From an uncultured Gammaproteobacteria bacterium (GTDB lineage: Bacteria > Pseudomonadota > Gammaproteobacteria > JACCXJ01), in assembly GCA_963764725.1 (NCBI GenBank), contig CAVXTM010000012.1:342213-406212 (forward strand): 64,000 nt of DNA, given 5' to 3'. A program made the position numbers and the translations under genes. Of this stretch, positions 2,998 to 31,722 are shown piece after piece. Every line of letters starts with the position of its first letter. The stretch's first letter is position 1. The notes beneath the pieces were generated by a model. The model saw only the letters and a list, made by a program, of their open reading frames with translations. It searched no databases and had not been told where the DNA came from.

Positions 2998-4257
2998 CTA
3001 AAGTTTTAGGTTAAATGTTAGCGTCGCCGTATTCTGCGAGTAGGGATTACCGTCAGGAGAGTCAGAGCTCCGATCCGTATAGCCATAACCGATGGATATG
3101 TCAAGGTAACGATTCATCAAGTACTTAGCCCCTACGGTGGCCCGCAGAACGTCGTCGGTACGAGGAACACCGACGAAATCGTCTTGAATACCGAAAAGGC
3201 TCGCTTGCAGCAGCAGATTTCTAAGGAGTTCGTGGTCTACGATAGCGCCATAGCGGGTGCGAAAGTATCCCGATGCCGGTATGTTGTCCTCATCTGTAAG
3301 GAAGGTCGTCTCTTCAATCGTACGTTCCACTTTGCCTGTAATCGTCGTCAGAGTGGTGACATTCCAGTAGATGGATGCGCCTCCTTGGGGGCCCTCGATC
3401 GTGGGTAAGGTTGGGTCATCGTAGAATTGCGAACGATAACCAACATAGAGGTCTCCGGTAGTCACCCCGGTAAGCGTAAGGTCCATGCCTACGACGACTT
3501 CGTAGCCGTCTGAACTCCGTAGAGTGCCGTCCTGTTGACGCTCGTCGTATGAGCGGTTGATATAGCTACCCAGCAGAAAGGCGGCGTACCCCGGGGTGAG
3601 CTCATAGGCGGCGCGGAGCGTCCCGATGGCGTCAGTGCGGTCACGCGTTGATTGAATGATCGTTGACCCGTCATCAGCGGTGATATTGTCATAGTCGTAC
3701 CGGGCTCCGGTACCTTCGAGCGTGACGGACAGGCGATTGAAGACGTGGTTATAGCCGCCGGTTACCGTAGAGACGTCATAGAAGCCCTGATTTCTCCCCT
3801 TTGGATCGTCCGGATCCCCACGCTCTTGATGAAGATGGGAATATAGAGCGTTTACAAACAGCGATTGGTTGCGGGTAATGTCTAGGCGTCCGTCCGTTCC
3901 AAAAGCATAATCTTCAAAGTCCTCATCTCCGTTGTCGATATATCTGCCGATATTCGCATCCGCTCTAAAATTTAAAGCGTGATTGTTCCAGTCCGATTTC
4001 ACCTTAACACCCGGCGTGATAAAGGTAATAAAAGCGTCTACTTCCCCCGTGTCTTCCGCGAAGATATTGTCGTTGTACTGCTCGCTAAGGGCAAGTGATG
4101 GATAAATCAGGAATCCGGCTGCTCGAATACCGAGTGGATCCAGCTCTGGCCGCTGACGCGACGTGACTGTCTCGCCGTAGCGTAACTGCTGTGCTTGTGC
4201 GGCTGGCATTAGCAGCAACATTAGCCAACAAGACGCAACGCGTGTACTAATTTTCAT
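2998..4257 (-). CDS. Outer-membrane beta-barrel protein associated with polysaccharide export
   Basis: Signal peptide, GIRAAGFLIYPSL...YNDNIF N-terminus, alternating amphipathic strands rich in Y/G/D/T, HELLRNL motif; adjacent to OPX. Confidence 0.8.
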   Translation of the reverse strand: MKISTRVASCWLMLLLMPAAQAQQLRYGETVTSRQRPELDPLGIRAAGFLIYPSLALSEQYNDNIFAEDTGEVDAFITFITPGVKVKSDWNNHALNFRADANIGRYIDNGDEDFEDYAFGTDGRLDITRNQSLFVNALYSHLHQERGDPDDPKGRNQGFYDVSTVTGGYNHVFNRLSVTLEGTGARYDYDNITADDGSTIIQSTRDRTDAIGTLRAAYELTPGYAAFLLGSYINRSYDERQQDGTLRSSDGYEVVVGMDLTLTGVTTGDLYVGYRSQFYDDPTLPTIEGPQGGASIYWNVTTLTTITGKVERTIEETTFLTDEDNIPASGYFRTRYGAIVDHELLRNLLLQASLFGIQDDFVGVPRTDDVLRATVGAKYLMNRYLDISIGYGYTDRSSDSPDGNPYSQNTATLTFNLKL

Positions 4258-6519: not shown

Positions 6520-7206
6520 CTACGACCAGTCGAAGCATCGCAATCGCCAATCGCTGCCTTCGACGGCTAGCGCCCCGGCGTAGCCTTCGTCGAGATGCAA
6601 GCTGCATAAGGTCCAACGCGCGGCCTCGCGCTCGTCGTCGTGGACGCGCAGCGACACGCGCGACTCGTTCGGTGCGAGCGAAACGGTGAAGCAATCGAGC
6701 GGGGCGAACAATCCGGTCCCGGTTGCCTTGATATAGGATTCCTTGCGCGTCCAGCCCGCAAAGAATGCCGCGCGCTGTTGTTCCCGAGGCAGAGCACGGA
6801 GTTCGGCGATTTCGGCGGCAGAAAAGAAACGCTCGGCGATTTCCGGACCTATTGATGCTTTGATGAATTCGACATCGATGCCGAGCTCGCGTTTTTTGGT
6901 CACGGCAAGCAAGACGAGATCATGGGAGTGCGAAAGGTTGAAGCGGAGATCACAGCCTGTGGAAAGCACGGGTTTGCCGCGCACGCCATAATCGAAGCGG
7001 AGATCGGCGGGCGACGTGTCGAGGTAGCGTGCGAGCACTGTTCGCAGCCAGCCGCGAGCCGCGATGAAATGCCTGCTGTCTTTCTCGAAATGAAAACGCG
7101 CCGCGCGGTCCAATTCATCGGGCGAGAGCTGGGCTTGCAGAGCGGGCAAAGCGGGAAGCGACGCGCGCCAGAGGTCGACTCGATCCGCCGCAATGCGAAG
7201 CCTCAC
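6520..7206 (-). CDS. Sfp-type 4'-phosphopantetheinyl transferase
   Basis: GKP, FNLSHS, LGIDVE, WTRKESYIKATG; start overlaps the TE stop. Confidence 0.93.
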   Translation of the reverse strand: MRLRIAADRVDLWRASLPALPALQAQLSPDELDRAARFHFEKDSRHFIAARGWLRTVLARYLDTSPADLRFDYGVRGKPVLSTGCDLRFNLSHSHDLVLLAVTKKRELGIDVEFIKASIGPEIAERFFSAAEIAELRALPREQQRAAFFAGWTRKESYIKATGTGLFAPLDCFTVSLAPNESRVSLRVHDDEREAARWTLCSLHLDEGYAGALAVEGSDWRLRCFDWS

Positions 7207-8309
7207 GCCAAGGACGCTCGTTGAATGCTGGGTTTGTGAGCTAGGCTTCCAGTGGCATCGTCTTGGACCCCGGGGGAGGTGTGCGGCGCCCTTCGCGCCT
7301 CGGCCAGGCAGATCTTCATTTGTTCGGCCAGCGGCCCGACATAAGGATCTTGAAACAGTTCGACATGCATGCCTGGGACCAGGCGATGGGTTGCTTGCGC
7401 GGCAAGCCGGGACCAGGCGTTTTGAATTTCGCGGCGCCGCACCTCGTCCATATCGTCGGCCGCCCAGATAAACCAGATCTTGCCGGCATAGGCTCTCGGC
7501 ACATAGTTCTTTTTCGCGCGCCGATGCGAATCAATAGTATAGCGCGACAAAAGACCGCGCGACAAAGGCAGTCTGCACGCCAGGAAAATAGGAAGCGCGA
7601 TTCTCCTACAGAGGACGTTCAACCCGTACCACACACGCGCCCACACATAGGCGAGCTGCTCGATGACATTTTTATTGACCAGGCTGCGTAAATGCCTTTC
7701 GACACGGTTGCGAGAACGATCGCGTGCCATTGGCGTCTTCGGCGGTGGGGGATCGATCAACACCAGCGCCGCGATCTCTTCGCCTTGGGCGAGCAACTGC
7801 TGCGCCATTTCCAGCGCGATCAGCGTCGACACGCAGTCACTGCTCAAATAATAAGGTCCGTGCGGCTGTACCTTGCGCAGGTGAGTCAGATTAAAAGCGG
7901 CCATTTCTTCAATGCGCGTCATGCGCATCTGCCTCGGGTCCCAGTGAGAGCTGATTCCGTACAGACGCTGATCAGGCCCGAGGCAGCGGCACAACTCGCG
8001 CAGCATCAGTTGCGATGCCCAGCCATACACTGAATAGCGGCGGGGTCGTGCCGTGGGGGTTGAGCGGCACGATCACATCCGAGTCATTGAGAGAATCTCC
8101 CGCCGCCAGGATTCGGCCGATCTGTTCTACGGTCGGTGCCTGGAACAGCGTCGCGACCGACAAACGCCGGCCGCAAGTCTTTTCGATTTCGGCCAACACG
8201 CGCAACACCAGAAACGAATGCCCGCCGAGATCGAAGAAGTTGTCGCGTATGCCAACCTGGTCGAGCTTTAGTACCGAGGCGAAGATCGCGGCGAGTTGCT
8301 GCTCGAGCG
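7178..8309. repeat. Direct repeat copy 1 (T-TE coding region plus first codons of the PPTase)
   Basis: Near-identical to 21175-22305; roughly a dozen substitutions and one 1-nt indel seen by eye. Confidence 0.95.
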
Positions 8310-11300
8310 TGGTGCGTGGTGCAACGTAAGCCGCTTCGAGTTCCGGCCGAGAATCATCGGGGGCCGGCAAAGCCTTGCGGTCGAGCTTGCCGTTCGGCGA
8401 CAAGGGCAGCGCATCGAGTAGAACGAATGCTGAAGGGACCATGTAGTCGGGCAACTTGGCTTGCAGCTGCGCGCGCAGTTCGGCCGTTAGCTTCGGCTGC
8501 TCGCCCGCGTCTGGGGACGCGGCGGCGCCGTCGGCTTTTCGCACCGGAACCAGATAGGCGACGAGCCGTTTGTCGCCGGGCACATCTTCTCTGGCGAGGA
8601 CGACGCTCTCGCGCACGTGCGGGTGCTGAGTCAATACCGCTTCGATTTCGCCTAGTTCGATGCGAAAGCCTCTGATCTTGACCTGGTGGTCGAGCCGGCC
8701 CAGATACTCGATCTCGCCCTGCGGCAGGTAGCGCGCCAAATCGCCGGTCTTATACAGCCGCTCGCCGGCATGAAACGGATTCGGGATGAATTTCTCGGCG
8801 GTCAACTCCGCCCGGTTCAGATAACCGCGCGCGAGCCCCACGCCGCCGATGTGGAGCTCGCCCGGCACTCCGATGGGGACCGGCTGCAGATTACGGTCTA
8901 AAATGTAGATCTGGGTGTTGGCGATCGGGTGGCCAATGGGAACGATTTGGTGCTTGCTCGCAGGATCGCACGCCCAGAACGTCACATCGACGGCGGCCTC
9001 GGTCGGCCCATAAAGGTTGTGCAGATCGACTGCCGGAAGGCGCTCGAAAGAGCGTTGCTGGAGGTCGAACGGCAAGGCCTCGCCGCTGCAGATCACGCGT
9101 TTCAGGCTAGTGCAGTTCTGCACCCACCGCTCGTCCAGAAACACCTGCAGCATGGAGGGCACGAAATGCAACGTGGTGATCTCGTGCTCGATGATGGTGT
9201 TGACCAGATAAGCGCTGTCCTGATGCCCGCCGGGGCGCGCCACTACTAACTGCGCGCCGCTCAAAAGCGGCCAGAAGAATTCCCAGACCGATACGTCGAA
9301 GCTGAAAGGCGTCTTTTGCAGCACTCGGTCGGCGCTGTTCAGCCGATATGCATCCTGCATCCACAACAGGCGATTGACGATGGCGCGATGCGTGTTCATC
9401 GCGCCCTTCGGCTGGCCGGTGGAGCCGGAGGTGTAGATCACATACGCGAGGTTATCGGGAGCAAGATCAGGACTCGGGTTGCTCACCGGATAGCCGCTGA
9501 AGTCCTCAGCGTCGAGCAGCACAAGCTGGGCGCCGTGCTCGGGCAGTCCGCGCCGCAGGCGTTGCTGCGTGAGTAGCACCGGCGCCTTGGCATCGCTCAG
9601 CATGAACGCGAGCCGCTCTTTCGGATAAGCGGGATCGAGCGGCACGTAAGCGCCACCAGCTTTCAGAATCCCATATAGGCCGACGACCATGTCCACCGAG
9701 CGTTCAGCGCAGATGGCAACCAGAACGTCGGGACCCATGCCGAGGCCGATCAAATGATGCGCGAGCTGGTTGGCGCGGCTATTCAGTTCGGCGTAGCTCA
9801 ATTGTTCGTGTCCGAAGATCAGCGCAGTCGCGCTCGGCGTACGGCGAACTTGCGCTTCGAACAATTCGTGGAGCAGCGCATCGGCGGGATAGTCGGTCGC
9901 CGTGTTGTTCCACTCCATTAGCACCTCACGCTGAGCAATTGATATGACCTCAAGTGAACCGATGCCCGATTCTGTGTCAGAGGCCATGACATTCAGTATG
10001 GAGGAATAAGTGTCGAGCCAGCTCTCTACGGACTCTCGGCTATAGAGCTTTTCGTTATGCCAGCAGACCAGCTGAATCTCGCCCTTGCATTCACTAAGAT
10101 TAAAGGCGAGCTCGTGTATGTGAAATGCTCGCTGGATATTTTCAACAGAGACATCCAGATCGCCGAAGCTGAAGTCCTCCCGAGCCTGCTCGAAGTTGAA
10201 CTGCACTGCGAACAGCGGATTTCGATCTGCCCTTCTCGGCAGCTTCAGCTTGGGGAGGAGCGCGCCAAATGTGTAGTGCCCGTGCTCCTGCATATCCAAC
10301 ACGGCGCTTTGCACTTGGCGAACAAACTCTGAACTGGTCTTCGAACCGTCAATATGCACCCGCAGGGGATGCATGTTTACACAATGACCTAGGACGCTGT
10401 CGAAGCCGAGCAGCGCCTGACCAGCCACGGGAACTCCAACGACGATATCGTCTTGACCGCTTACTCGCCCAAGTAGCAGGTACAGACCACTCAAAAGAGC
10501 GGTGAAAAAGCTGCAACCGTTTGATTGACTGAAGAGTCTGAGGCCGGCCACAGTATTCGCGCTTATGCAAGTACGAATTTCCCCGCAGCGAAAAGATTTG
10601 ACCCCACTTCTCTTTCCATCGACTGGCAGGATTAGATCCTCCGGCAAAGTCGAGAACACCGACAAATAATGCGCTTCAGCGGCCCGACCTTCCGGGCCGT
10701 CTTCGAAGTCCCGCTGCTCCCTCATATAGTCGGTGTATCTGGGAGCGGAAGCGGCGGTTGGAGCTTTTCCCACGGAGCACAAGGAATATCCCTGGCTAAA
10801 CTCGTTCAGCAGCGTTCTTATAGAAAAGCCGTCGCATATCAGGTGATGAATGGTCAACAGAAGAGTGTGATTATTCTTGTCAAAAGAAAGCAACTGAGCA
10901 CGAAAAAGCGGTTCCTGGTCTATCTCGAATGGGATAGAAGCTTCCATTCGAGCCAGCTCGTCGATCTGTATGGGATCATCGACCGCGATGGATCGAACCG
11001 AAAGCTCAGCGAGTGTACGAGAGTGCAGGTAACTGATCGGTTCCTTCAGATCAAAGCTCATGCGCAGGGTTTCATGACGGTTAACCAGCCACTGCAGTGC
11101 TTCTTTCAGTGCGCCAACGTCCAACGGACCGCGCAATTCAATGCGATACGGGAGATTCAATGAGCACGATGCTTCAGGGCCAAATTGAACGCCGAGCCAC
11201 AACTCCATCTGTGCCTCGGTAAGCGGCATCGCCACCGGACGGTCACCGGCAGCGCCACTCTCAGGCCGCAACAGCAACAGGCGCGAATCGTGCCTATCAT

Positions 11301-14300
11301 TAGCAGGAGTCATCGGGAACCATTCGAAGCTCTCGGGCTTGAGAGGCTCGACGGCGCGCTGCCACTCAGCCAGGTCCATTAACGGGCTGTCCTTTCGAAT
11401 CGAGTCCTCGAACAACCACCATTGCGGCGTGAGTCCCCAGATCATCTGATCCCAGCGGTAAGTGCCGACATGCTCGATTGCACAGACGACGCCGCCGGGC
11501 GCCAGCGCCACAAACAGATTTCCGAGTACGTTGGCGACGTCTGGCGTCGCGTGGATAACGTTTAGCGCAACTACTACGTCAAAAGACGCAGATTCGATTC
11601 CCTGCTCCAATAAGCTCTTGGTGACGTCGACGACACTGTAAGACATTCTTGCACCATCAACGCTGCTGCCGCGGCTACGAGCATCCTCCACCAGAGTCGG
11701 CGACAAGTCTGTAAAGTGGTAGTGGGCGCCGGCCGGCAGCTGCGACGCGATACGCCAAGTTAGATCACCTCCTCCTCCGCCTACTTCGAGAATTCTTATG
11801 GGCCTTATGGCCGCCAATTTCAATAGCTCCCGTGCAAGTGCATCTTGAACATCGGCAACACCTCGATAGTCGGGCGTCTGTGTCTGCAGGACCTCCTTTA
11901 TCATGGTCCGTGTGCCATCGGGGAGAAGAACAGACACGCCCGGGAGCTCCCCCCGCAAAACTCTCGGCAGGGCAGCCGCGCAGTTTGCCAACAGTTCGCA
12001 GAGCGCGCTAAAGGAAGGGTGCCGCTGCTCGATTTCGTTCGCGAGAGCCCGCGGAGTCTTAACGGCCGATATCGCACCGGTCACTGTCAGCTCGTCTTGC
12101 GAATCACCCTCAACCAAGCCATCGTCCCGTAGCATTTTGAAAAAGTAATTGATCAATTTGCCGTAGGGAGAACGCACCGCCAGGGCGGCCATGACCTGAT
12201 CCCTGGAGAGCGTCGTACGTGCCTCCAGCTGAATACCGCTGCTTCTAAAAAGGTCCACTACCAAAGCTGTACAGAGACTATCCAGGTCCGCCCGCACACG
12301 CCCAAACTCTTCCCTATGGGCTGCCGTCGTAGTCAAAGACGCATTTCGCATATTCGCCGCGAGAGAATGCGCAACCGATTGTTGATCCGCTTCCCCGGCA
12401 CTACCCGCGGCGACCGATATCGCTGTTCGGGCGGGCTCGGACGCCTCGCCCAGCAGGCCAATACCGGCGAGCTCGTCACAGGCCTCCACGATTCGCTCGC
12501 ATATCGCATCGACATCCGCAGCGGTATGGGCGGTGGAAAGGTAACAAGGGAAATCTTCGTAACAGTGGACACCCTTGCTTCGGAGTAGAGGGAACAACAA
12601 CCCGGAATAAGTGAACTCCTCCTGGCAATGCAAATTAAACAAGGAACTGAAGTGATCAATTTTGATTGGATACTGATGGTCACGGAAGTGAGTATTCAGC
12701 CGGTCCGCGAAACTCTGGGTTAGAGCGTTCAGATCGTTTTGAAGTTGTGGGCCGCTGTCTGCCATATGTCGAAGCGCCGCATGCATCGCTGCGACTGACA
12801 GGGGATGCCGAATGAACGTACCGCCCAAATACGTTACCCCGGCTTGTGGGAATGACCCATCACCGAAGTGCCATGACCCGCCGTCGAAGGCATCCAGGTA
12901 CTCCGGCTTGCCGGCAACGACTGACAGCGGCATTCCGGCGGCGACCGCTTTACCGTAGGTGGCGATGTCGGCTGTTACTCCATACCAAGCCTGCGCACCA
13001 CCCGGATGCGTGCGAAAGCCCGTGACTATTTCGTCGAAAACCAGGGCTATATTATGCTGCTCAGTTACAGCTCGCAGCTGATGAAGGAATTCTCTGGGTT
13101 GATTGGAGGGGTTACGGCTCTGAACGGGTTCCACGAGAACCGCCGCCAACTCATCCGCGAAGTTCCGAATGATCTTCACAGAAGCGGGATCACCATAGTC
13201 CAGTATCAGAACGTCGGAGACCATGTGATCTGGTATTCCAGGCACCTGCGGTACGGCGTGGATTTTTCCGTTAATAACCGTGGGTCGGGCAACGACACAA
13301 TCCACCCTGCCGTGGTAAGAACCGGAGAACATGGCGATTCGATCCTTCCCTGTCACCGTGCGGGCTATACGCAACGCTCCCAGAACCGCCTCCGACCCTC
13401 CCTGGGCATAAGTCATTCGGCCAGCACCGGTCGTACGGCAAAGGAGTTCGGCCGCCTCGCCGGCGAGCACGGACTGTGGTCCAAGGGATATGTCGGTATC
13501 CACGGCGTTTGCCAGGGCTTTGCGCAAGAATGCCGGAGAATGGCCGAAAAGGTGTGCGCCAAATCCCATTAGAATGTCGAGGTATTCGTTCCCATCCGCG
13601 TCGACGATCCTGCATCCCTGGCTGCTCTGGGAAACAATCGGATAAACAGCCTCCTTCCATTCGCGCCGAAACCCGGCAACGGTTCGCGGATCCGAGAGGC
13701 AAGCGCGATATCGCTCCGCGTGGCTCTTGGAACTACGAGTCCTTTCGTTGTAGCCGGTAATAAATTCATTGATATATTTCTGTTGGGCATTGGAGAGTGG
13801 CGTGGTCTGTGCCCGCTTGACTGGCTTGAACGGACCAAAGCCCTTGACGCTACGGCCAAATGTTTTAGGTGCGTCGGCTAAACGCACCGATCTTTCCCCA
13901 CCCCCACCGTCGGAGATTGCCGATGTTGCACCGGGAACCTGCTGGCTGAGAATGTCGACCTGCTGCTTCACGAGCTCCAGCTGGCGCTGAATCAGTAGGC
14001 CCATTTCCGCAAGGCTGCCGGGCACCTCGCCCTGTCCCGTCGGTGTCCCTTGGGCCGGAATAGTTTCGATGGCACGGGTGGCCCTGGACGGCGCGGCGGG
14101 CGGCGCAAACCGGCTCGGCGCCTCCCGAGCGAGGTGACTGGCGATCTGCTCGATTGTCGTGAGGTCTTCGAAGAGCCGTCTGAACAGCACTCGGACACCG
14201 AAGCGTTTCTTCATCTCAGCGACCAGCCGGGTCATCAACAGAGAATCGAATCCAAGTTCAACGAGCGTCTTCGATTTCTGCAGACTCCCCTCATCGATGC

Positions 14301-17151
14301 CCGTGAGCTCATTGAGGAGGGCCTTTAGCTCCGCGATCGCTGCCCCAGTAGGATTAGGCGGACTGCCTGTGGCGAGAGGTAACATGGCAACAGAGGGATT
14401 AGGTATCGCCGCGGGCGGCGGGGCAGCGTTGACGATGTCGGGAATCTGACTCGCTAGCGATACAGCCAGGCTACGGAGGGTCGGCGTAGCGCTTGCCTCA
14501 TCGGAGGAAAGCCAATATCTCTGGCGTTCGAATGGGTAAGTCGGCAAAGACACCTTGGAACGGTCGCTGCCGGAAAACAGTAGACGAGTCTCCAGATCCG
14601 CACCATTGGCCCAAAGGTCACCATAGGCCGCCAATAGCATGAGCTGATCGTCGGCATCCATTCGGGCACCACGGACGCAACTGATAATCGGGTATGACGA
14701 CGTCAGTCCAACTTTTTGCCTGACGAAACTCGCCAGTGTGCTCCCGGGCCCCACCTCCATGAATGCGGGATCGTTTAGTTCCAGCAGTGAATCCAGACAG
14801 TGATTGAACAGCACGGGCTGGCGTATATGCTTGCCCCAGTAGGCTGGCTGTGTGGCCTCTTCATCCCGGAGCCACGATCCAGTGACGTTGGAAACTATTG
14901 GGACTGCGGGCGGGTTGAGCGTAAACCGGCCTACGAACTCGGTGAAAGGATCAACGGCGGATTCCATCAGCCGACTATGAAATGCATGGGAAGTACGAAC
15001 CGGCCGCCAGCCCACTTCTCTTTCGTCAAGCACGCCTTGAAAAGCGATAACGTCCTTGTCCGCGCCAGCTACAACCACCAGCTCCGGCGCGTTGACGGCC
15101 GCGATCTCCAACTCCGGCGGCAAAAGTCGCTCTACGTCCTCCGCGGAGAGCTGCACCGCTACCATTTTTCCCGTTGGAACGGCCTGCATCAGAGCAGCTC
15201 GCGTGGCAACAATCGCCATTGCGTCGTCGAACTTGAACACCCCGGCCAGGGTTGCTGCAACTAGCTCCCCGATACTGTGTCCCACCAGTGCTGCCGGCGT
15301 TACGCCTCGCGCCTGGAGCGATCTAGCTACGGAGTACTCCACGGCAAACAAAGCCGCTTGTGTTACATGCGTTTTGTTGAGCGCCTTTTCCGCACGCTCC
15401 AGGTCGCTGTCGGGGCAGAAGATAATCGCCCTAAGGTCGAGACCCAAATGGGACTGCAACCCCTCGCAACAATCGTCAAAGGCCCGTCTGAACACCGGAT
15501 CCTGATCGTAGAGCCCGATGGTCATCCGAGGATACTGACTACCCTGACCCGTGAACATGAAGATTGTGTTGCTGACGTGGCGCGTCCCTAGCGAAGGCGA
15601 ATTGCTGGCCACCGCACTCTGCTCGAGCTTCGAAATGGCTCCCGACAAGTCCTGACAAGCAACGAATTGCCTGACCGGCAGGGACTGACGACCAGTGGCC
15701 AACGAAAACGCCACATCCGAAAAATTGAGGGTGGGGGAAGACACGAGAAAGCGCACCAGATTCTCGGCGCTGCGTGCCAAGGCCGCCGGCGTCTTGGCCG
15801 ACAGCAATAGCAGCTCGGCAGCTCGTGCGGGTGCTGAGCCCTCTGGCTCGGGCGGCTCCTCCAGAATGGCGTGGAAGTTGGTCCCACCGAGCCCAAAAGA
15901 ACTGATTCCGCCACGCCGCGGTCGCTGCTCGCCGGGCCAATCCTTTAAGTCCGTATTGACATAGAAGGGACTGGTCGCCAAGTCGAGCTCTGGGTTAGGC
16001 CTCGAGAAGTTTATGCTTGGCAGCAACTTTCGGCGGCTCAACATTAAGCTCAACTTTATCAGTCCGGCGACGCCGGCGCCGGCATCCAAATGACCAATGT
16101 TTCCCTTCAATGAACCTAGAGCGCAGTACTGGACAGCGTTTGTTCTCTGCCTGAAGGCTCGGGTCAAGGCTGCGACTTCGATAGGGTCTCCGAGGGTCGT
16201 TCCGGTCCCGTGAGCTTCTACATATTGAATAGAATCCGGGTCAATGTCCCCGACCGCCAGAGCTTCAGCGACTACGCGCGCCTGCCCGGAAACACTCGGT
16301 GCGGTGAAGCCGGCCTTGTCCGCCCCGTCGTTGTTCAAGGCTGAGGCCAAGATGACGGAATAAATGCGATCACGATCCTCAATCGCATCCTCGAGGCGCT
16401 TAAGTACCACGGTTGCTACACCGCTGCTATAGATGCAGCCTTGCGCACGTTCATCGAACGGCCTGCAATGCCCGTCCCGGGACGGTATGCCGCCCTCCAC
16501 CCAGTGGTATCCGGCAGTTTGTGGCACATGGACTCGTGCACCCCCTACAATGGCTGCATCACACTCGCCGTTGAGCAGGGATTGGCAGGCTAGGTGCAGG
16601 GCAACCCCTGAACTGGAGCACGCCGACTGCACGGAGAAGGCGGGCCCGGTGAGATTCAGCTTATAGGCTACCCGGGTCGCCGGGAAATCCTTGTCGCTAC
16701 CGAGCGTCGCTTCATAGGTGGCTCCACTCTCTACCAAGTCTCTATAGACCAGGGCGTTGTGCAGGAAATACGTATTCCTAGCTACACCACCGAAAACACC
16801 AATCTGACCATCGAATCGAGTTGGGTCACAGCCTGCGTCTTCCAGCGCCGTCCAGGCCGACTCCAGAAAAATTCGGTGTTGCGGATCCATGAGCTCCGCT
16901 TCCCGCGGAGTAATACCGAAAAAAGAGGCGTCAAACCCATCGGCATCGTCGAGCGGCGCACCAGCATTGACGTAGTCCGGGTCGTTAGTCACCTGAGGAT
17001 CCACACCCGCTTGCCGCAACTCCTCCTCCGAAAAAGGACGAACCGACTCCACACCGCGGCACAAATTGCGCCATAGGGCTTCAATATTGGGCGCTCCTGG
17101 GAACCGCCCCGCCATACCGACAATCGCGATCCGGTGCGTGGCAGTTGTCAT
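7203..17151 (-). CDS. Hybrid PKS-NRPS KS-AT-ACP-AMT-MT-C-A(Ser)-T-TE, split by a +1 frameshift at ~8005 (ORFs 7972..17151 and 7203..8030)
   Basis: KS (SACSSS, HGTGT, GHLDAGAG); AT (GHSIG, HAFH = malonyl); ACP (GFDSL); class III aminotransferase (FDEIVTGFR, TYGK); MT (LEVGGGGG, NVIHAT); C (HHLICDG); A (YTSGSTGQPKG; code read DVWHISLVDK = Ser-type); T (GGHSF). TE continues in another frame after GIAT. Confidence 0.92.
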
Positions 17152-20100
17152 GGCTTGCTCTTTCGATGATGCAATCGCCGCTCACGAATCGCGTTCCGAT
17201 TCCTCTGGGCTTTGATCGAAATCCGATCAGACCCCGGTTGATCAGCGTCTGCTGGGTCATAGCCCAGTTGGCGAGCAAGATCCCAGGTTGCCGGCGCAAG
17301 AGCGTATTTCGTTTGGGCCGCCTTCCAACTGTCGGCGACATCCGGCCGGATCTCGGAGAATGTCAGGAATCGAACGTCGCCCATGGGGGTCGATTCTGGA
17401 TACAGACCAGTCGTCATTTTGCTCTCTTTGTTCCGGTAGGGTTCAACCAATTCCTCTATGTAGGGTAAGTCCAGCATTGTGCAGGCGCGCTCCATTGCCG
17501 TACGGGGATCTGCAACCAAGTCTTCGAACCGAAGGCGGCACTGCCGTTCCTCGGGAACCTTTGTAAGCAGCTCGAGTATATTGAAATGGCTGCGCAGCCA
17601 AACCAGTTCGCCCAACTGACGGGTATTATAAGGATGATCCTTGAGTAAGAGGATCTGGTCCATATGCATTTTCTCGAAGGACCGTGTCGCCGCCAAGGGA
17701 TGGCGGACGAGATGGATAAACTTAGCCTCTTCGAAGTCCAGCTCGGCATGTTCTAAGGCGACCGGGTCGAGGGCATATGAGGGGGTCTTATCTAATAGGA
17801 GCCGTTCACCGATCGCGTCTTGAAGTAGCTTGTAGAATTCGATGGTTGTCAGGTCTTTGCTTTCGTACTCCTCCATCAGACGCCTGGCCGCATCAGCGTC
17901 GACCCCGCGTAACTCCATCAGTACCCGGATCGTTCCCTCTAACCAGGCCTCAAATTTCCCCTGGAATGCCGCCCGGCGACTCCGAAGCGTCTCAAAGTGT
18001 AGTAGCTGCAGCTCCGGTGCGGCGAACAGATCCGGATGTCCAGCCAGCATTACCCGCAACAAGGTGGTTCCGGACCGTGGGGGAGCCAGTATGAACACCG
18101 CGGGCGGATTTAGGGGCGACGCAGAGTCGCGACCGGTAGACCGGAAGATAGGTACCCGCCCCTGAAATCGGCCAATCTCTGCATCGGTCAAAACGCGAGC
18201 GTCAGCAACGCGGCGCGTGTCGTCACGCCCCAGGCCCTTGACGCCGGTGAACAATTCGCGTATCCGATGTGGATACTGCCGCTTCAATAACTCGGCGTAT
18301 TCGGCAATCGTCGGCGCCTCGAATACGGTAACAACGTAGACGAACTCGTTCAGGCGTTGTTGTAGCCGCTGAACCAGCCGCGCCGCCCGCAGCGAGGTGC
18401 CGCCTGCGTCAAAGAATCCGACATGAATTCCGAAATCTTCACGACCGAGGATGGCCGCCCAACTGGCGTGCAGCCAACGCTCCAGCTCATCCCGGGGTGG
18501 GGCTTCCTGGCCGTTGCGGCGAATCGTGGCTTTCTCCGGCAGGTGCAGCGCCGGGCGATCGAGTTTGCCGTTCGGAGTCAAAGGGTACTCATCCAGCATA
18601 ACAATCACATCGGGAACCATGTAGTCGGGAAGCCATTTGGCGCAGTGTTCACGTATGCTGGACTGCAAGTCCTGAACGGAATACCAGTTTTCCGATGCAG
18701 GTAGTCGGGATATGGCGGATGAGCAAACGCTGGCTCGCCGCGCAAAAACTAGCTTCAGTGATGTATCTGCGAGAGGGTCCGCCTGGTCTTCGACGTACTG
18801 GAACCCCTTGTCATCCAGAAGCTGCTTGAACTGCCTAAGGCGATCCCCTGTGTCGTGAACTTCCGCTACGATCTGCCGGATTTTTGGCCAGTCGTCATCC
18901 TCGAGTCCCTGCAGGACCTCGAGTTCGCTTCGCTCTACGTCAATCTTCAGCAGATCGACATGGTCGATTCCCAGGTCAGCTATGGCACCCGATAGCGTTT
19001 TGATCGGACAAGTGAAGGATTCTGTCGTCAGCCGTGCCGCCACCAGTTCATCGAGGACCCGGTGTGACACGCTCCCGGAAAGAGAGGAGTCTGAGGCCGC
19101 CAGGTAACGTGCCACGGTATCTCGGTCTTCCTGCAAATTCGCCTTTGCGCCTGACAATATCGACGCGTGCTCGTAGAACGTAAAGCTGGCGGTCTCCGGG
19201 ATCCGCCCCACACCATATCCCAATGGCTGGATCGATTCTCCGTAGAGCTCCGCATTGGTCGTCAGTATCTCCAGCAGCGGCGGGATGGGCTCAAACGCGA
19301 AGACCTTGGAACCCGGGATCTCGGTAGCAACCAGGATCGAAAATAAGCCAATGTTAGCTCCCACATCGAAAACGCAAGCTCCGTGCCCCAGCTCGATACC
19401 ATGTTGGAAATAACATCGGTCTCGAAATATTTCGTCGTACATGAAATCGGTTTCTGATTTGTTCAAGTGGCGCACCACGAGGCCATTAGGGAGCTCGTAC
19501 AAATCTGCAGCGCCGTTGCATTTCGAACGATAGCGTATCGTGACAACAGCGGCCGTTCGGTCTGGATCAGCCAGCAGATGGGCCGCCAGTTTCTGTTCTT
19601 GATCGTCGCTTGAAAATGTCGTCACAACAGCATCGCGCACGCCGGGATGACGACGTAACGTTTCCTCGATTTCTCCCAGCTCAATCCGAAAGCCCCGAAT
19701 TTTGACTTGATGATCCAGCCGCCCCAGGAACTCGATGGACCCATCCTTGCGCCATCGCGCAAGATCACCCGTCTTGTAGAGCAACGCCTTTGAATCACCG
19801 GCAAAAGGGTCTGTGATGAATCGTTCTGCCGTCAGCTCGGGGCGGTTGTGATATCCACGTCCCACCTGAACGCCGCCAATGTGCAGCTCCCCCGCGTCTC
19901 CGTTGCCAACTGGCTGAAGGTCTTTATCCAGTATGTATAGCTTCGTGTTCAACACGGGCCGCCCGATTGGCACTACCCTGTCCTCTCCACCGGGCTCACA
20001 CTTCCAGTGAGTAACGTCAACCGCGGCTTCCGTCGGTCCATAAAGATTATGTAGTTCCGCGTCTAGGGTACTGAAGAACCGCTCCTTCAAGTCGTAGGAT

Positions 20101-20951
20101 AAAGCCTCGCCGCTACACACGACCGCACGCACCGAACCACAATATTCATTTAGGCTTGGCTGGCCCAAGAACACCGCCAACATGGACGGAACAAAGTGCA
20201 ACAGCGAGATCTTCTGCGCGTCGATGAGCCTCGCCAGATACGCCGGGTCTCTATGCCCGCCAGGCCGAGCCAACACCAGCCGGGAGCCGGTCATGAGCGG
20301 CAGGAAAAATTCCCAGACAGAAACGTCAAAGCTAAAAGGTGTCTTCTGCAGTACCGCGTCGTTTACAGATAGCTGAAAAATACCCTGCATCCAGATCAGG
20401 CGGTTCACAATCGCGCGATGGGTATTCATCGCCCCTTTCGGTTTGCCGGTCGATCCGGAGGTATAAATCATATAGGCGAGATCTTCCGGAGCCAGCTCTA
20501 CCGCTGGCGGATTAGTGGGAAGCGTCTCGACCTTTTTCCAATCGGAATCGAGCCTGAAGACAGCCGCATCGGTCGATGGTAATCGGCGAAAGAGGTGCCG
20601 CTGGGTAAGCAGGACAGGGGGGCTTGCATCCCGGAGCATGAAGTCGATCCGCTCACCTGGATAGTCCGGGTCTATCGGGACATACGCACCACCGGCTTTG
20701 ATAATGGCCAGCAACCCCACCACCATTTCCAATGATCGCTCCGTGCAGATCCCGACCATCACATCCGGCCCAACGCCCATCGATCGCAGATGATGCGCCA
20801 ACTGGCTCGAGCGAGCCTCGAGCTCAGCCCGACTCAGGCTAGCCTCCGCCGTCCACACGGCCTCCCCACCGGGGTTCATACGGCGGCCGCTCTCAAGATG
20901 CGTCAGCAATAGGTCCTGAGCGTTTATCAACGCCAAGTCTTTTCCGACCAT
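17148..20951 (-). CDS. NRPS loading module A(Ser) interrupted by FkbM-type methyltransferase, followed by T and sulfotransferase
   Basis: A code DVWHVSLVDK (Ser-type). VFDVGANIG...LLKIDVE FkbM domain inserted between A8 (GFRIELGEIE) and A9 (LPDYMVP). T (GGTSL); PAPS-binding loop APPRSGTTLL and DKTP. ATGA overlap with the PKS gene. Confidence 0.92.
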   Translation of the reverse strand: MVGKDLALINAQDLLLTHLESGRRMNPGGEAVWTAEASLSRAELEARSSQLAHHLRSMGVGPDVMVGICTERSLEMVVGLLAIIKAGGAYVPIDPDYPGERIDFMLRDASPPVLLTQRHLFRRLPSTDAAVFRLDSDWKKVETLPTNPPAVELAPEDLAYMIYTSGSTGKPKGAMNTHRAIVNRLIWMQGIFQLSVNDAVLQKTPFSFDVSVWEFFLPLMTGSRLVLARPGGHRDPAYLARLIDAQKISLLHFVPSMLAVFLGQPSLNEYCGSVRAVVCSGEALSYDLKERFFSTLDAELHNLYGPTEAAVDVTHWKCEPGGEDRVVPIGRPVLNTKLYILDKDLQPVGNGDAGELHIGGVQVGRGYHNRPELTAERFITDPFAGDSKALLYKTGDLARWRKDGSIEFLGRLDHQVKIRGFRIELGEIEETLRRHPGVRDAVVTTFSSDDQEQKLAAHLLADPDRTAAVVTIRYRSKCNGAADLYELPNGLVVRHLNKSETDFMYDEIFRDRCYFQHGIELGHGACVFDVGANIGLFSILVATEIPGSKVFAFEPIPPLLEILTTNAELYGESIQPLGYGVGRIPETASFTFYEHASILSGAKANLQEDRDTVARYLAASDSSLSGSVSHRVLDELVAARLTTESFTCPIKTLSGAIADLGIDHVDLLKIDVERSELEVLQGLEDDDWPKIRQIVAEVHDTGDRLRQFKQLLDDKGFQYVEDQADPLADTSLKLVFARRASVCSSAISRLPASENWYSVQDLQSSIREHCAKWLPDYMVPDVIVMLDEYPLTPNGKLDRPALHLPEKATIRRNGQEAPPRDELERWLHASWAAILGREDFGIHVGFFDAGGTSLRAARLVQRLQQRLNEFVYVVTVFEAPTIAEYAELLKRQYPHRIRELFTGVKGLGRDDTRRVADARVLTDAEIGRFQGRVPIFRSTGRDSASPLNPPAVFILAPPRSGTTLLRVMLAGHPDLFAAPELQLLHFETLRSRRAAFQGKFEAWLEGTIRVLMELRGVDADAARRLMEEYESKDLTTIEFYKLLQDAIGERLLLDKTPSYALDPVALEHAELDFEEAKFIHLVRHPLAATRSFEKMHMDQILLLKDHPYNTRQLGELVWLRSHFNILELLTKVPEERQCRLRFEDLVADPRTAMERACTMLDLPYIEELVEPYRNKESKMTTGLYPESTPMGDVRFLTFSEIRPDVADSWKAAQTKYALAPATWDLARQLGYDPADADQPGSDRISIKAQRNRNAIRERRLHHRKSKP

Positions 20952-28081: not shown

Positions 28082-29377
28082 GGGCACTTCGATAAATTCG
28101 TTTCCAGTGGTAGCTAACCGTTAAATAACCAAGGATGATTAAAGTCGGGTAAGTGGTGTTTTGTACACGGCTACCGCTTGCCTTATAGGATGCCGTTTAC
28201 CATCGCTGCTTTAGGTTGCGTGGGCAAGCCGATTTCCTGGCTTGCGTCGCTCCAGTTGCAGATAGCGCATGATGTTGTAGGTGAGGTTCATCAGCGCGAT
28301 CATGGTCTTGGCCCTAGCCAGTCCTATGGTGCGGATGAGTTTGCCGCCCATGGAGTTATGCTGAAAGCCAAAGACATGCTCGACCCGGGCGCGGATGGTG
28401 GAGCGCAGGCGGTTGAGGCGCTTTTTGTGCGCACTCAGCGGTTTGCCCCGCTGGCCTTTGTAGTGGATCTGGCTCTTGAAGCCAGCCTCCCCAAGCCGCT
28501 GTTCGGTTTCCTCGGACCGATAGGCACTGTCGGCCCAGACAGAGGCTCCGGTGTTGGCTTCATCGAGCACCTCCGCTAAGAGCTGGCTATCGTGGATGGC
28601 GGCATCGGTGACGGTAAAGTTGCGGATGAGCTTGTGCTTGTTGTCCACGTTGATGTGGTTCTTGTACCCAAAGTAGCTCTTGCCGTGTTTCTTGGTCCAA
28701 CGGACGTCGGTGTCCTTCTGCCGGCGCATCGCGGGGTTGTTTTCCCAGTCCTCAGGCAGCTCGCCGCCTTTGATCGCCGCATTCTCTTCCCGAGTATTCC
28801 TCTGGCGGGGCACCGGCACGATGCTGGCATCGATGATCTGCCCGGCTTTTGCCTGATAGCCGCGCTCGCTGAGATAGGCATTGAAGCGCTCAAAGAGCCC
28901 CTCCAAGAGGCCTTGCTCGGCCAACACCTGCCTATAGGCCCACAGCGTGGTGGCATCGGGCACGTTGTCCTGCAGGTTGAGCCCGAGAAAGCGCATGAAC
29001 GACATCCGTCTTTGATTTGATACTCCATCTGCTGATCGGAGATGTTATACAGACTCTGCAACACTAACGCCTTGAACATCATCACCGGGTCCAAAGGCTT
29101 GCGACCGGCGGGTGATTTACGCTCCTTCTCATGGATCTTGGCGCATAGCGGACGAAATTCCTCCCACGGGACCGACTCCTTGAGCACCACCAACGGGTCA
29201 CCCATCGCGTCCAGTGCGTCATAGCGCTCCTCTACATCAAACAACCCCGGTTGCCCCATGATCATCTCCCCTTGCTGCTCTTATGGATGAGGGCCCATAT
29301 TCTAACACGAGTTATATATCCGATCAGCTACTAAAAGCTATACTAAGGCCCGAGTCGAGGAATTAATCGAAGTGCCC
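28082..29377 (-). mobile_element. IS5-family element; transposase frameshifted at ~29005
   Basis: TIRs GGGCACTTCGATAAATTC / GAATTAATCGAAGTGCCC (17/18). ORF pieces 28576..29265 (N-term) and 28211..29005 (IIDASIV, FGYKNH, ADSAY, RARVEHVF). TSD ambiguous. Confidence 0.9.
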
Positions 29378-29471: not shown

Positions 29472-31722
29472 TTAAATCACCCCCGGCAAAGCCGGGGGCT
29501 TATTGGGTGAGCGCCTCAAAGGCGCCATAACAGCATGAGCCGCCCAAGGCGGCGGGTCTACATTCCAAGCTTCATCTGCTCGTAGCGCTCGTCTTCTTCC
29601 TCTTGGTTGCGGATATAGGCTCGGACCATGTTTTCCTCCAAACCCACGGTGGAGACGAAGTAACCGCGTGCCCAAAAGTTCTCGCCGGTGAAATTGCGCT
29701 GTCGACCACCAAACGTCTTGGCTATCTGAATGGCACTCTTCCCCTTGATGTACCCGACCACATTCGCCACCGCATACTTCGGCGGAATACTCAGACACAC
29801 ATGCACGTGATCCCCCATCAGGTGCCCTTCGACAATCTTCGATTCCTTGTGCCTCGCTAGCTCGTGGAATATCTCCCGCAACTGTCGTCGCAGCACCCCG
29901 AAAATCTGCTTCCTCCTTCGCTTCGGTATAAACCTTCCAGTTGCATAAATTTCTGCGGTTAACCGCAAAAAATGGCGTGAAGGCGGGGGGTTCGTCGAGT
30001 TTTGCGTTGTCCTCTGGATTTCACCAGGGGTGAAATCCAGCGATTCAGTTAAAGAGGCTGATCTTGCGATCAGCTAAGTAGAAGAAGCGGTCTGCACGTT
30101 GCGGTATAATATGTTTGCTAAAACAAAACGATCCGCAAAGGAGACCGCTCCCGTGAAGTGTAGCAGAACCGATGTTCACTGCAAGACCCACAGCCTTCCA
30201 GTACTCCGATTCGAAGAGAGCCAACTCACTTCGTTCTCGGGCTTGGTCCTTATCCAAGAGCTCTTTCGCCGTCTGGATCTCAAGGAGCGGTTACGCCGGT
30301 GTTTTGAGCATCTTGTTGTCAGTCCCATCTTTGGGCACGCCACCGTTGTGCTCTCTCTGGTGCTGCACCTGCTGATGGGGTTTCGGGAATTGCGCGATAT
30401 TCGGTATTATGCCGATGACCCGTTGGTCCGACGCACTCTGGGCCTGCGCCGGCTGCCCGACGTGGCCACCCTCAGTCGGGCCTTGGCACAGGCCGACCCG
30501 AAGAGTGTCGAGCAGCTGCACCGCCTGCTGCGCGAGTTGGTGGTGGCTCGGCTGGCGAAGCTTGATCTCCCACGGGTCACCTTGGAGGCTCGGTCATCGG
30601 TACTGGAAGATTCGCCGAGGGGACGGCCGTGGGATTCAACCGTAAGAAGAAAGGACAGCGCAGTTATTACCCGTTGTTTTGCACGGTGGCCCAAACCGGG
30701 CAAGTGCTCGATGTGCTGCACCGCTCCGGTAATGTCCATGACTCCCATGGCGCGCAGGCCTTTATCCGCGACTCTATCGCCACCGTGCGTTCGGCCCTCC
30801 CCGGGGTCTGCATCGAGGTACGCGTGGATAGCGCCTTCTTCAGTGACGCGATCATCACGAGCCTCGATGCCCAGGGCGTTGAGTATACGGTCAGCGTCCC
30901 CTTCGAGCGCTTCGGAGAACTCAAAGAACGCATTGAAGCGCGTCGATGGTGGCATCGGATCGAGGCGGGATGCGCCTACTTTGAGGCGCAGTGGAAGCCC
31001 AAGGCTTGGAATGTTCGCCATCGCTTCCTCTTCATTCGCACTCGGGTCAAACAGCAACACAAAGACCCCGTGCAGCTCGATCTCTTTATCCCCCAAGCCT
31101 ATGGCTACGAGTTCAAGGTTATCCTCACCAACAAGCCCCTCCGCGCCCGCAAGGTGCTCGCCTTCCATAACGGGCGGGGCAGCCAGGAGGGTATCTTCGC
31201 CGAGCTCAAATCCGACAACCAGCTCGACTATGTCCCCACGCGTACTTGGGTCGGCAATCAGATCTACCTGCTCTCAGTCCTCCTGGCTCACAACTTCGGC
31301 CGAGAGCTGCAAATGATCGCCCATCCTCCTTCGCGTACTACCCTTGAGAAGCGCCCGGCGTTTTGGGACTTCGCACGCCTTGACACCCTGCGGCGTCGCC
31401 TTATTCAGCGTGCAGGCCGTTTGATCCGGCCGCAGGGACAGCTCACGCTCAGTATGGCTGTAAACCCAGTCGTTCGCGACGAGCTGTTGCATTACCTGGA
31501 GACTTTGAAAGCCGCATGAGTTCGCCAAACAACCGGATTTTTTGCAACGCTAGGGTAAACACTACGTGATATTTGCAGTCCCATCTCGTATGACTCAAAC
31601 TCTGATATTCTTTCATCTGTGAATCCCCTTCTCTTGGCGGAGATCGGAGATTCACACCGACCGTAGTACAGGTCAAACCACGGTGAGTCCCCCGGCAAAG
31701 CCGGGGGCTTACCTCACTGAGT
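29472..31722 (-). mobile_element. tnpA: IS200/IS605-family element (tnpA only), interrupted by IS1380
   Basis: Subterminal hairpins CCCCCGGCAAAGCCGGGGG at 29480-29498 and 31689-31707. N-term MKEYQSLSHTRWDCKYHVVF (31616-31557) joins IPKRRRK...DHVH (HUH)...WARGYFVSTVG (to 29558). Exact ends approximate. Confidence 0.9.
29933..31555 (+). mobile_element. IS1380-family element; transposase disrupted near 30585
   Basis: 4-bp TSD TAAA (29929-29932, 31556-31559); imperfect TIRs CCTTCCAGTTGCATAAAT / rc CCCTAGCGTTGCAAAAAA. LTSFSGL...; after VTL a frameshift/small deletion, then GFNRKKKGQRSYYPL, RVDSAF, RGSQEGIFAELK. Confidence 0.88.

Follow-up and report, generated by a model that had tools for sequence, protein, structure and literature searches.

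A serine-loading module with an embedded FkbM-type methyltransferase and a terminal sulfotransferase: a candidate source of a sulfamate starter unit

Organization of the locus

The sequence analyzed here, called the window below, is a stretch of 64,000 nucleotides from an uncultured Gammaproteobacteria bacterium (GenBank assembly GCA_963764725.1, contig CAVXTM010000012.1, positions 342,213 to 406,212 of the forward strand). On its reverse strand lies a gene for a nonribosomal peptide synthetase (NRPS) loading module. Its product, P0001, combines an adenylation (A) domain, an FkbM-type methyltransferase (MT; M domain when embedded) inserted into that domain, a thiolation (T) domain and a terminal sulfotransferase (ST). 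Judged from its domains, P0001 is the predicted initiation module of a short line of NRPS, polyketide synthase (PKS) and again NRPS parts. The features are as follows, with the basis of each assignment in parentheses; ORF stands for open reading frame.

17148..20951, reverse strand: loading-module gene A(Ser)[M]-T-ST, P0001, 1267 aa (ORF list, translation, Pfam)
19548..20876, reverse strand: adenylation core, residues 26-468, with motifs A1-A8 and Ser code DVWHVSLVDK (Pfam AMP-binding, TIGR01733, code extraction)
18690..19547, reverse strand: embedded FkbM-type M domain (type II, Ser/Thr O-methylating), residues 469-754, 286 aa (Pfam PF05050 and six motifs)
18507..18689, reverse strand: remaining, C-terminal piece of the A domain, residues 755-815, including A9 LPDYMVP and A10 NGKLDR (Pfam AMP-binding_C, motif positions)
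18285..18479, reverse strand: thiolation (carrier) domain, residues 825-889, with the phosphopantetheine site within FFDAGGTSL (Pfam PP-binding)
17232..18134, reverse strand: ST domain dependent on 3'-phosphoadenosine 5'-phosphosulfate (PAPS), CurM/OLS family, residues 940-1240 (PDB sequence search and motifs)
17151..17231, reverse strand: basic C-terminal tail, residues 1241-1267 (R/K-rich in an alignment of 6 homologues)
7972..17151, reverse strand: megasynthase of 3059 aa with ketosynthase (KS), acyltransferase (AT), acyl carrier protein (ACP), aminotransferase (AmT), MT, condensation (C), A(Ser) and T domains in this order (Pfam)
7203..8030, reverse strand: thioesterase (TE), in another frame than the preceding T domain (Pfam Thioesterase)
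6520..7206, reverse strand: Sfp/HetI-type phosphopantetheinyl transferase (PPTase) (Pfam ACPS; NCBIfam HetI 2.6e-56, below the curated cut-off)

In P0001, Pfam finds AMP-binding at residues 26-368 (E 1.6e-86; the A domain also matches TIGR01733 at 5.8e-137), Methyltransf_21/FkbM (PF05050) at 529-719 (E 5.1e-13), AMP-binding_C at 760-796 (E 3.4e-07), PP-binding at 825-889 (E 8.7e-11) and Sulfotransfer_3 at 950-1164 (E 2.5e-29). No Condensation domain is detected in the protein by Pfam, and the A domain begins about 25 residues after the N-terminus. The insert lies between A8 (GRLDHQVKIRG, 410) and A9/A10 (LPDYMVP, 774; NGKLDR, 794). The initial annotation had described a Ser-specific A domain without C domain, interrupted by an FkbM-type MT between A8 and A9 and followed by T and ST, and this architecture is borne out by Pfam, the motif positions and the Ser code. 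The translational coupling that it claimed between the loading module and the KS gene also has its counterpart in the DNA, where the P0001 stop codon and the KS start codon share bases in an ATGA. The C-terminal tail of P0001 is a possible docking element toward the KS protein.

In the megasynthase, the KS triad is intact (C177/H314/H351), the AT motifs GHSIG and HAFH are of the malonyl type (rule cited in PMC11356792), the ACP and C domains carry the motifs LGFDSL and HHLICDG, and the A-domain code DVWHISLVDK is a second Ser code. The KS-AT-ACP-AmT-C-A-T logic is that by which MycA, ItuA, McyE and NdaF make a beta-amino acyl unit (PMC11356792). These enzymes extend fatty or polyketide chains, whereas the KS of the line in the window would extend a single modified amino acid, so that a vicinal diamine would result; this line also has a Methyltransf_12 domain between AmT and C.

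Serine specificity and the embedded methyltransferase

The specificity code of the P0001 A domain was read at residues 209, 210, 213, 252, 278, 280, 303, 311, 312 and 417 (DVWHVSLVDK). It equals the code of the Ser-activating domain of the enterobactin synthetase EntF, DVWHFSLVDK (PMC3795760), at 9 of 10 positions, and the sole difference is at position 299. In a survey of 201 domains for Ser or dehydroalanine, the code varied at positions 299 and 330 (PMC12283262). Asp235 is present in the P0001 A domain, so an alpha-amino acid is expected, and specificity for Ser is a clear prediction.

Type II M domains interrupt Ser/Thr A domains between A8 and A9, have a size of 290 +/- 13 aa and carry six motifs (PMC8341866, Table 1). 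The insert of P0001, with 286 aa, is within this size, and all six motifs are found in it: EIFRDRCYFQHG, VFDVGANIGLFSI, EPIPPLLEILTTN, FTFYEHASILSG, VDLLKIDVERSE and WPKIRQIVAEVH. Three of them depart by one residue each, namely motif ii (last L to I), motif iii (T at the R/A/E position) and motif iv (P to E). By insertion site, motifs, size and Ser code, P0001 belongs with family 2a of interrupted A domains (A8-Ms(O,Ser/Thr)-A9).

For the tested type II members, KtzH and ColG, biochemical work has established O-methylation of Ser, and N-methylation in ColG is done by a separate type I domain (PMC8341866). Among FkbM-family enzymes in MIBiG with documented or inferred activity, a single N-methyltransferase, EreM, stands beside 29 O-methyltransferases (PMC9259500). 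O-methylation is accordingly the default prediction for the P0001 M domain. Because this domain has the type II motifs, all six of them at a matching size, and the tested members O-methylate Ser, the comparison with KtzH and ColG drawn in the initial annotation was correct. KtzH(A4) and ColG (family 2a/5a) share with P0001 a Ser A domain, an FkbM-type insert of about 290 aa at A8-A9, the DVGx(N/H)xG motif for S-adenosylmethionine and all six motifs. However, they are ordinary modules without sulfotransferase, while P0001 has no C domain, terminates in an ST and feeds a KS; the word sulfotransferase has 0 occurrences in PMC8341866.

In the MT tree, 5 of 6 ST-linked MTs group in a single clade (support 94), in which the branch leading to P0001-P0003 is long. 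The MT of P0001 clusters with other A8-A9 inserts and not with that of P0123, a protein discussed below with OciA.

Two back-to-back FkbM-type M domains within one A domain were observed in P0176, P0204 and P0219. Each copy clusters with its counterparts in the MT tree, and the tandem arrangement suggests two different methylations of one residue.

The sulfotransferase and its known relatives

A PDB sequence search with the P0001 ST returned the STs of CurM (4GBM, 7e-65) and OLS (4GOX, 6.5e-58), and no further match better than 2e-5. The PAPS motifs (5'-PSB and 3'-PB; PPRSGTT and RHP..S) and the Glu of PELxLL (E980) are present, which places the domain in the CurM/OLS family. In the CurM ST structure paper, this Glu is said to be the catalytic base. 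PPRSGTT, PELQLL, DKTPSY and RHP..S are invariant across 6 MT-bearing homologues with overall identities of 48-95%.

As in CurM and OLS, the ST of P0001 stands directly after a carrier domain. The context is different: in CurM and OLS, an ACP-ST-TE unit ends a PKS and receives a chain whose beta-hydroxyl was made by a ketoreductase, whereas the ST of P0001 stands behind an aminoacyl carrier that starts the line, with no ketoreductase and with a KS next in place of a TE. The motif is PELHLL in CurM and PELQLL in P0001.

A second comparison concerns the reaction. SulN of the sulfazecin pathway catalyzes PAPS-dependent N-sulfonation of a beta-amine on a carrier-bound NRPS intermediate (PMC11298585). 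Sulfonation of an amine on such an intermediate is what is proposed for P0001. SulN, however, is free-standing; its target, reached in trans, is the beta-amine of the final residue before the beta-lactam is closed.

The genome (4.2 Mb, 19 contigs) has a single copy of this ST and encodes an APS (adenosine 5'-phosphosulfate) kinase (228 bits), so PAPS should be available. The MT-T-ST region is absent from the 40 related genomes searched, five of them unpublished; the best match among them, G036, covers the MT-A9-T part only, at 38%.

A tandem ST pair of the PPELQLL type was seen at the C-terminus of P0242, P0243 and P0244 (KS-AT-AmT-...-C-A(Ser)-T-ST-ST). The precomputed Pfam list of these proteins also has a luciferase-like monooxygenase.

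A family of A-T-ST loading modules

The initial annotation had proposed to look for the same architecture in other genomes. A protein search was made with the MT-T-ST part of P0001, and the picture given here comes from the best 120 matches. They are mostly stand-alone A-T-ST proteins of 950-1050 aa, and among them the A[FkbM]-T-ST form occurs in P0001, P0002, P0003, P0006, P0007, P0010 and the partial P0122. When genomes were scanned with an alignment of the ST only, 50 loci emerged, 46 of which were domain-mapped and some checked by Pfam. In 33 of these 46, an A-T-ST module is followed by a KS. One of these, L118 from Thermoanaerobaculia (with no more than 58% identity to any other), also bears an MT and is an independent case of the insert with a full downstream KS-AmT line.

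In most of the 33 loci (27), KS-AT-AmT-C-A is seen, in many cases together with TE and PPTase; 5 end at contig ends, and a single one, L117, has KS-AT-ACP-C-A-T with the ST kept and the AmT absent. All 33 have the ST motif ELQLL or ELKLL, and this Q/K motif splits the loci fully (33 of 33 STs before a KS versus 11 of 11 before C or TE). In a further set of long proteins, the STs preceding a KS in loading modules are likewise of the ELQLL/ELKLL type (30 of 30). The loci come from Saprospiraceae and other Bacteroidota, Trueperaceae, Thermoanaerobaculia and other Acidobacteriota, Burkholderiales, Gammaproteobacteria, Calditrichia and Gemmatimonadetes; the phyla represented are Bacteroidota, Deinococcota, Acidobacteriota, Gemmatimonadota, Calditrichota and Pseudomonadota. 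The window has the arrangement of this family, an A-T-ST loading module directly before KS-AT-ACP-AmT-C-A-T and TE, and its cluster is an A-T-ST/KS-AmT cluster with two methyltransferase domains added. In the literature searched, no description of the A-T-ST loading module or of its family was found.

Two candidates were tried and rejected. The Q of ELQLL was considered as the signature of a distinct reaction, and it is also present in the elongation-module STs of P0279 and P0242-P0244. P0007 was considered as a C-A[M]-T-ST elongation module, which would exclude N-sulfonation, and Pfam finds in it only a C remnant (32.5 bits, model positions 229-278); half-C remnants are found in six other loading modules besides P0007. 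The C-terminal half of a C domain (model positions ~190-455) opens P0007, P0148, P0167, P0168, P0182, P0199, P0201 and L146. These halves do not have the HHxxxDG region and are therefore remnants, not working C domains.

Termination modules of the form C-A(Ser/Thr)-T-ST-TE, the peptide counterpart of ACP-ST-TE in CurM, were also observed (L128, L064, P0008, P0065, P0064 and P0178). L064 contains two STs (A-T-ST-C-A-T-ST-TE). By analogy with CurM, such modules could release a C-terminal enamide by decarboxylative elimination.

Starter codes of the loading modules

To see which residues the ST accompanies, we summarized the codes of 85 stand-alone A-T-ST proteins, which had been retrieved by T-ST similarity alone. 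The codes of 83 are readable.

Ser: 60 of 85
Gly (DILQ...IWK): 10 of 85
Thr: 3 of 85
Ala-like (DLFNNAL..., an assignment that we presume): 2 of 85
His-type (DSALIAEVWK): 2 of 85
beta-Ala-like (VDWTVSLADK, likewise our assumption): 2 of 85
homoserine (Hse)-like: 1 of 85
other, unassigned: 3 of 85
too short to read: 2 of 85

The Ser assignment is based on PMC3795760 and PMC12283262, and those for Thr, His-type, Hse-like and Gly on PMC12283262, in which DILQLGMIWK is Gly-activating. The codes DLFNNALTYK, DGLLSAQVGK and DVLLNSLVNK were searched for in print, and none was found.

Starters that carry no hydroxyl group (Gly, Ala-like, His-type and beta-Ala-like) make up 16 of the 83 readable loading modules. 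In the 12 of them that were checked, all 10 Gly and both Ala-like modules, 5 of 5 ST motifs are retained, and the motifs are present in 18 of 20 non-Ser/Thr modules examined. In the ST tree, the Gly modules are scattered among the Ser modules, with at least 3 forced changes. Ser does offer a beta-hydroxyl as acceptor, yet these 16 starters do not, and in P0001 the predicted O-methyltransferase would target the same oxygen.

In order to compare, 90 STs within elongation modules, where the alpha-nitrogen is acylated, served as a control. Their codes are Thr in 28, Ser in 15, what we take to be Tyr-like in 25, Hse-like in 2, Thr-like in 2 and unassigned in 18; neither Gly nor Ala codes occur among the 90 (0 each). 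Read from these codes, the presumed O-sulfonating STs of elongation modules track hydroxyl residues, and the loader clade does not do so strictly.

One of the Ala-like modules lies in a metagenome-assembled genome with the locus A(Ala-like)-T-ST/KS-AT-AmT-C-A (L146:4241), and a single frameshift was observed in the RHP motif of its otherwise well-kept ST. Either the assembly is in error at this point or the ST was inactivated recently; in the homologues P0167 and P0182, the ST is intact.

Gain and loss of the methyltransferase insert

In the ST tree, the label for presence of the MT is forced to change at least 3 times within the ST clade. Both states occur among the nearest ST relatives of P0001, with the MT present in P0002 and P0003 and absent from P0004 and P0014, the latter with a Thr code. 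P0004 is 84% identical to P0001 (91% and 81% beside the insert), and the alignment leaves a clean gap of exactly residues 469-754. ELQLL is kept in 7 of 7 MT-bearing members, and the remaining ST motifs in all 6 that were aligned. Repeated gain beside an intact ST is not expected of an insert that would block the ST's own target.

Proposed starter unit and alternative explanations

According to the pathway that we propose, the A domain of P0001 would activate L-Ser and load its own T domain. The type II M domain, from a family whose tested members O-methylate T-bound Ser, would act on seryl-S-T, and the C-terminal ST, with all PAPS-binding and catalytic motifs examined, would follow. The product would pass to the KS and be extended by two carbons by means of the malonyl-type AT and the ACP; the class III aminotransferase domain would turn the beta-keto group into an amine, C-A(Ser)-T would add serine, and the thioesterase would release the product. 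Each of these steps is supported by the sequence, that of the M domain through its family membership. Beyond them, we infer that the M domain would yield O-methyl-Ser-S-T and that the ST would then sulfonate the alpha-amine, the sole nucleophile left, so that the starter would be O-methyl-seryl with an N-sulfo (sulfamate) group. The line would end in a small 4-(sulfoamino)-3-amino-5-methoxypentanoyl-Ser peptide, to which the Methyltransf_12 domain behind the AmT may add another methyl group. The sulfamate could plausibly cap the amine against cyclization or self-condensation of the alpha-amino-beta-keto thioester, and would provide a permanent anionic group.

The initial annotation had reached the sulfamate starter by elimination: if the Ser hydroxyl is methylated, the amine is the remaining nucleophile. 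The hydroxyl-free loading modules, the elongation-module control and the turnover of the MT insert together point to the same group, since the amine is common to all starters. On these three lines, we tentatively favour an O-methyl, N-sulfo-seryl starter made by P0001. With equal reserve, the proposal may be widened: the ELQLL-type ST could be a cis-acting N-sulfotransferase domain, and the whole family could make sulfamate-capped vicinal-diamine peptides, of which the cluster in the window would be the O-methylated member.

Several observations weigh against this reading. By a hand count from the printed alignment, the P0001 ST is ~48% identical to the STs of CurM and OLS, and these O-sulfonate the beta-hydroxyl of an acyl-ACP to make a leaving group (PMC3903477). 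The side-chain hydroxyl of seryl-S-T is at the same beta position, so the family default is O-sulfonation; this default collides with that of the M domain because both target one oxygen. Ser/Thr codes account for 63 of the 83 readable loading modules (Ser 71% and Thr 4% of all 85), as an O-sulfotransferase would produce, and the counts for loading modules and control overstate the support because related sequences are not independent. The sole Ala-like module in full genomic context (L146) has the frameshifted ST described above. A metagenome scan with Gly-loader proteins (generic A-domain patterns) gave 73 loci, 0 of them reaching the ST, which leaves the context of the Gly modules unseen, and the commonest Saprospiraceae starter codes (DGLLSAQVGK and DVLLNSLVNK) match no assigned residue. 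Since Q is found in elongation-module STs as well, ELQLL is a clade marker only and no signature of N-sulfonation. The analogy with OciA, transferred to Ser, gives an N-methyl, O-sulfo product. From the above, the sulfamate starter of the initial annotation is favoured by the loader codes, the control and the insert turnover and is opposed by the CurM likeness, the Ser enrichment and the OciA analogy; it is favoured, not demonstrated.

OciA, a cyanopeptolin/oscillapeptin synthetase of Planktothrix, is the basis of the first alternative. In its loading region (a glycerate-loading domain plus a sulfotransferase), as is proposed for P0001, in-line domains methylate and sulfonate a three-carbon, carrier-bound unit. 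P0123, a protein that resembles the OciA loading region, consists of an FkbM-type MT that is not embedded in an A domain, FkbH (LDCDYTLW), T, a related ST and C; its MT has five type II motifs that are close and a partial fourth among the six. With HO3SO-CH2-CH(OMe)-CO, the oci product bears an alpha-O-methyl and a beta-O-sulfo group (PMC2533009, Table 1). Following this example, the ST of P0001 would O-sulfonate the Ser beta-hydroxyl and the M domain would methylate the amine, leading to N-methyl-O-sulfo-Ser, with the sulfate either kept or used as a leaving group. The CurM/OLS homology (7e-65 and 6.5e-58) and the 63 Ser/Thr codes fit such a course; EreM is an example of an FkbM enzyme that is an N-methyltransferase, and the tandem FkbM domains in P0176, P0204 and P0219 indicate that the targets need not all agree. 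However, the unit in OciA is glycerate loaded by FkbH, with a C domain next and no KS, and the P0123 ST is of the PPELELL subtype. Because glycerate has two hydroxyls, methyl and sulfate go to separate oxygens there. The MT of P0001 groups with A8-A9 inserts instead of the P0123 MT, the tested inserts of this type, those of KtzH and ColG, put the methyl group on the Ser oxygen (the nitrogen is served by a type I domain in ColG), and intact STs accompany 10 Gly and 2 Ala-like starters, with 2 His-type and 2 beta-Ala-like starters also hydroxyl-free. We regard an OciA-like course as unlikely. The C domain of P0123 holds an insertion of proline-rich repeats.

The second alternative keeps the O-methyl-Ser starter and moves the ST to a later step, where it would act on the beta-amine made by the AmT or on the released product, so that any sulfamate would not be on the starter amine. 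Of the 28 loci whose downstream sequence reaches far enough, 27 pair the ST clade with an AmT, and SulN sulfonates the beta-amine of a carrier-bound peptide. On the other hand, in 33 of 33 loci the first T domain has the ST fused right after it, and STs of the CurM type act on the carrier just upstream. L117 has the ST without an AmT, hence the ST is independent of the amine that an AmT makes. This timing seems improbable to us.

Hardly better placed is a contest for the oxygen, in which MT and ST would compete for one hydroxyl and give two congeners, or in which the O-sulfate would leave to form dehydroalanine or, through attack by the free amine, a Wenker-type aziridine, with the MT diverting flux. 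CurM-type STs are activating enzymes whose sulfate departs, Ser/Thr is enriched among the loading modules, and the C-A(Ser/Thr)-T-ST-TE modules (L128, P0008, P0065, P0064 and P0178) show CurM-like ST-TE logic in NRPSs. But Gly, Ala-like and His starters offer no group for an elimination, and an O-methyltransferase that blocks an essential leaving group should not recur beside an intact ST; we doubt this explanation about as much as the preceding one.

That the ST is catalytically idle in P0001 and retained only for structure or for docking in front of the KS protein, as its C-terminal site adjoining a tail that must contact this protein might suggest, is very improbable, given PAPS-binding and catalytic motifs that are invariant in 6 MT-bearing homologues (48-95% identical) and present in 18 of 20 non-Ser/Thr modules.

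Other features of the window

The Methyltransf_12 domain lies between the AmT and the C domain of the megasynthase (window 11360-12460, residues ~1565-1930), and no type I N-MT motifs were found in it. At this position, no Methyltransf_12 domain was detected in the 33 related loci mapped by tblastn; P0242 and P0244 have an MT in a comparable KS-AmT protein. The final T domain and the TE are out of frame, with an overlap of 59 nt (7972-8030), and relatives such as L118 have a fused T-TE. Aligned to the window, the fused protein of L118 runs through two frames, with the homology switching near 8009-8026. The break is either a frameshift, real or by sequencing error, or a natural split. A PPTase gene also stands behind the assembly line in 9 related loci.

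A second NRPS set is located upstream (window 21200-41377) and comprises A-T, a ThDP (thiamine diphosphate)-dependent enzyme, an A-T resembling fatty acyl-AMP ligases (FAAL-like), C-A-T, a lone Asp-like A domain and C-A(Thr)-T-TE. Because it has its own TE, it was treated as a separate line, which it probably is. It is interrupted by transposase genes (28211-29005 and 30099-31316) and may be disrupted.

On the other side, a gene of the inositol-monophosphatase family (1034-1813) matches both HisN and CysQ. Its assignment as a clear CysQ was rejected, with scores under all curated cut-offs. A gene for a PEP-CTERM/EpsL-type outer-membrane protein (2998-4257) lies just outside the cluster.

Significance

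The domains of P0001 are of known kinds; new variants are seen in how they are combined, in where the ST stands and in the family that is thereby exposed. Sulfamates are rare among natural products, and in the monobactams, antibiotics of a class in clinical use, the sulfamate serves as the pharmacophore. For N-sulfonation on an assembly line, only the free-standing SulN was found in the literature searched. P0001 is the best test case because its own O-methyltransferase would remove the competing hydroxyl. If the sulfate is on oxygen instead, two tailoring domains would be aimed at one atom, and this would need its own explanation. If the sulfamate starter is true, the ST of P0001 would be the first in-line N-sulfotransferase domain and represent a new in-line tailoring reaction for assembly lines, as well as a portable part to engineer anionic caps. 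It would also be the key to widespread small NRPS-PKS clusters, which would make up a large and untouched family of sulfamate natural products.

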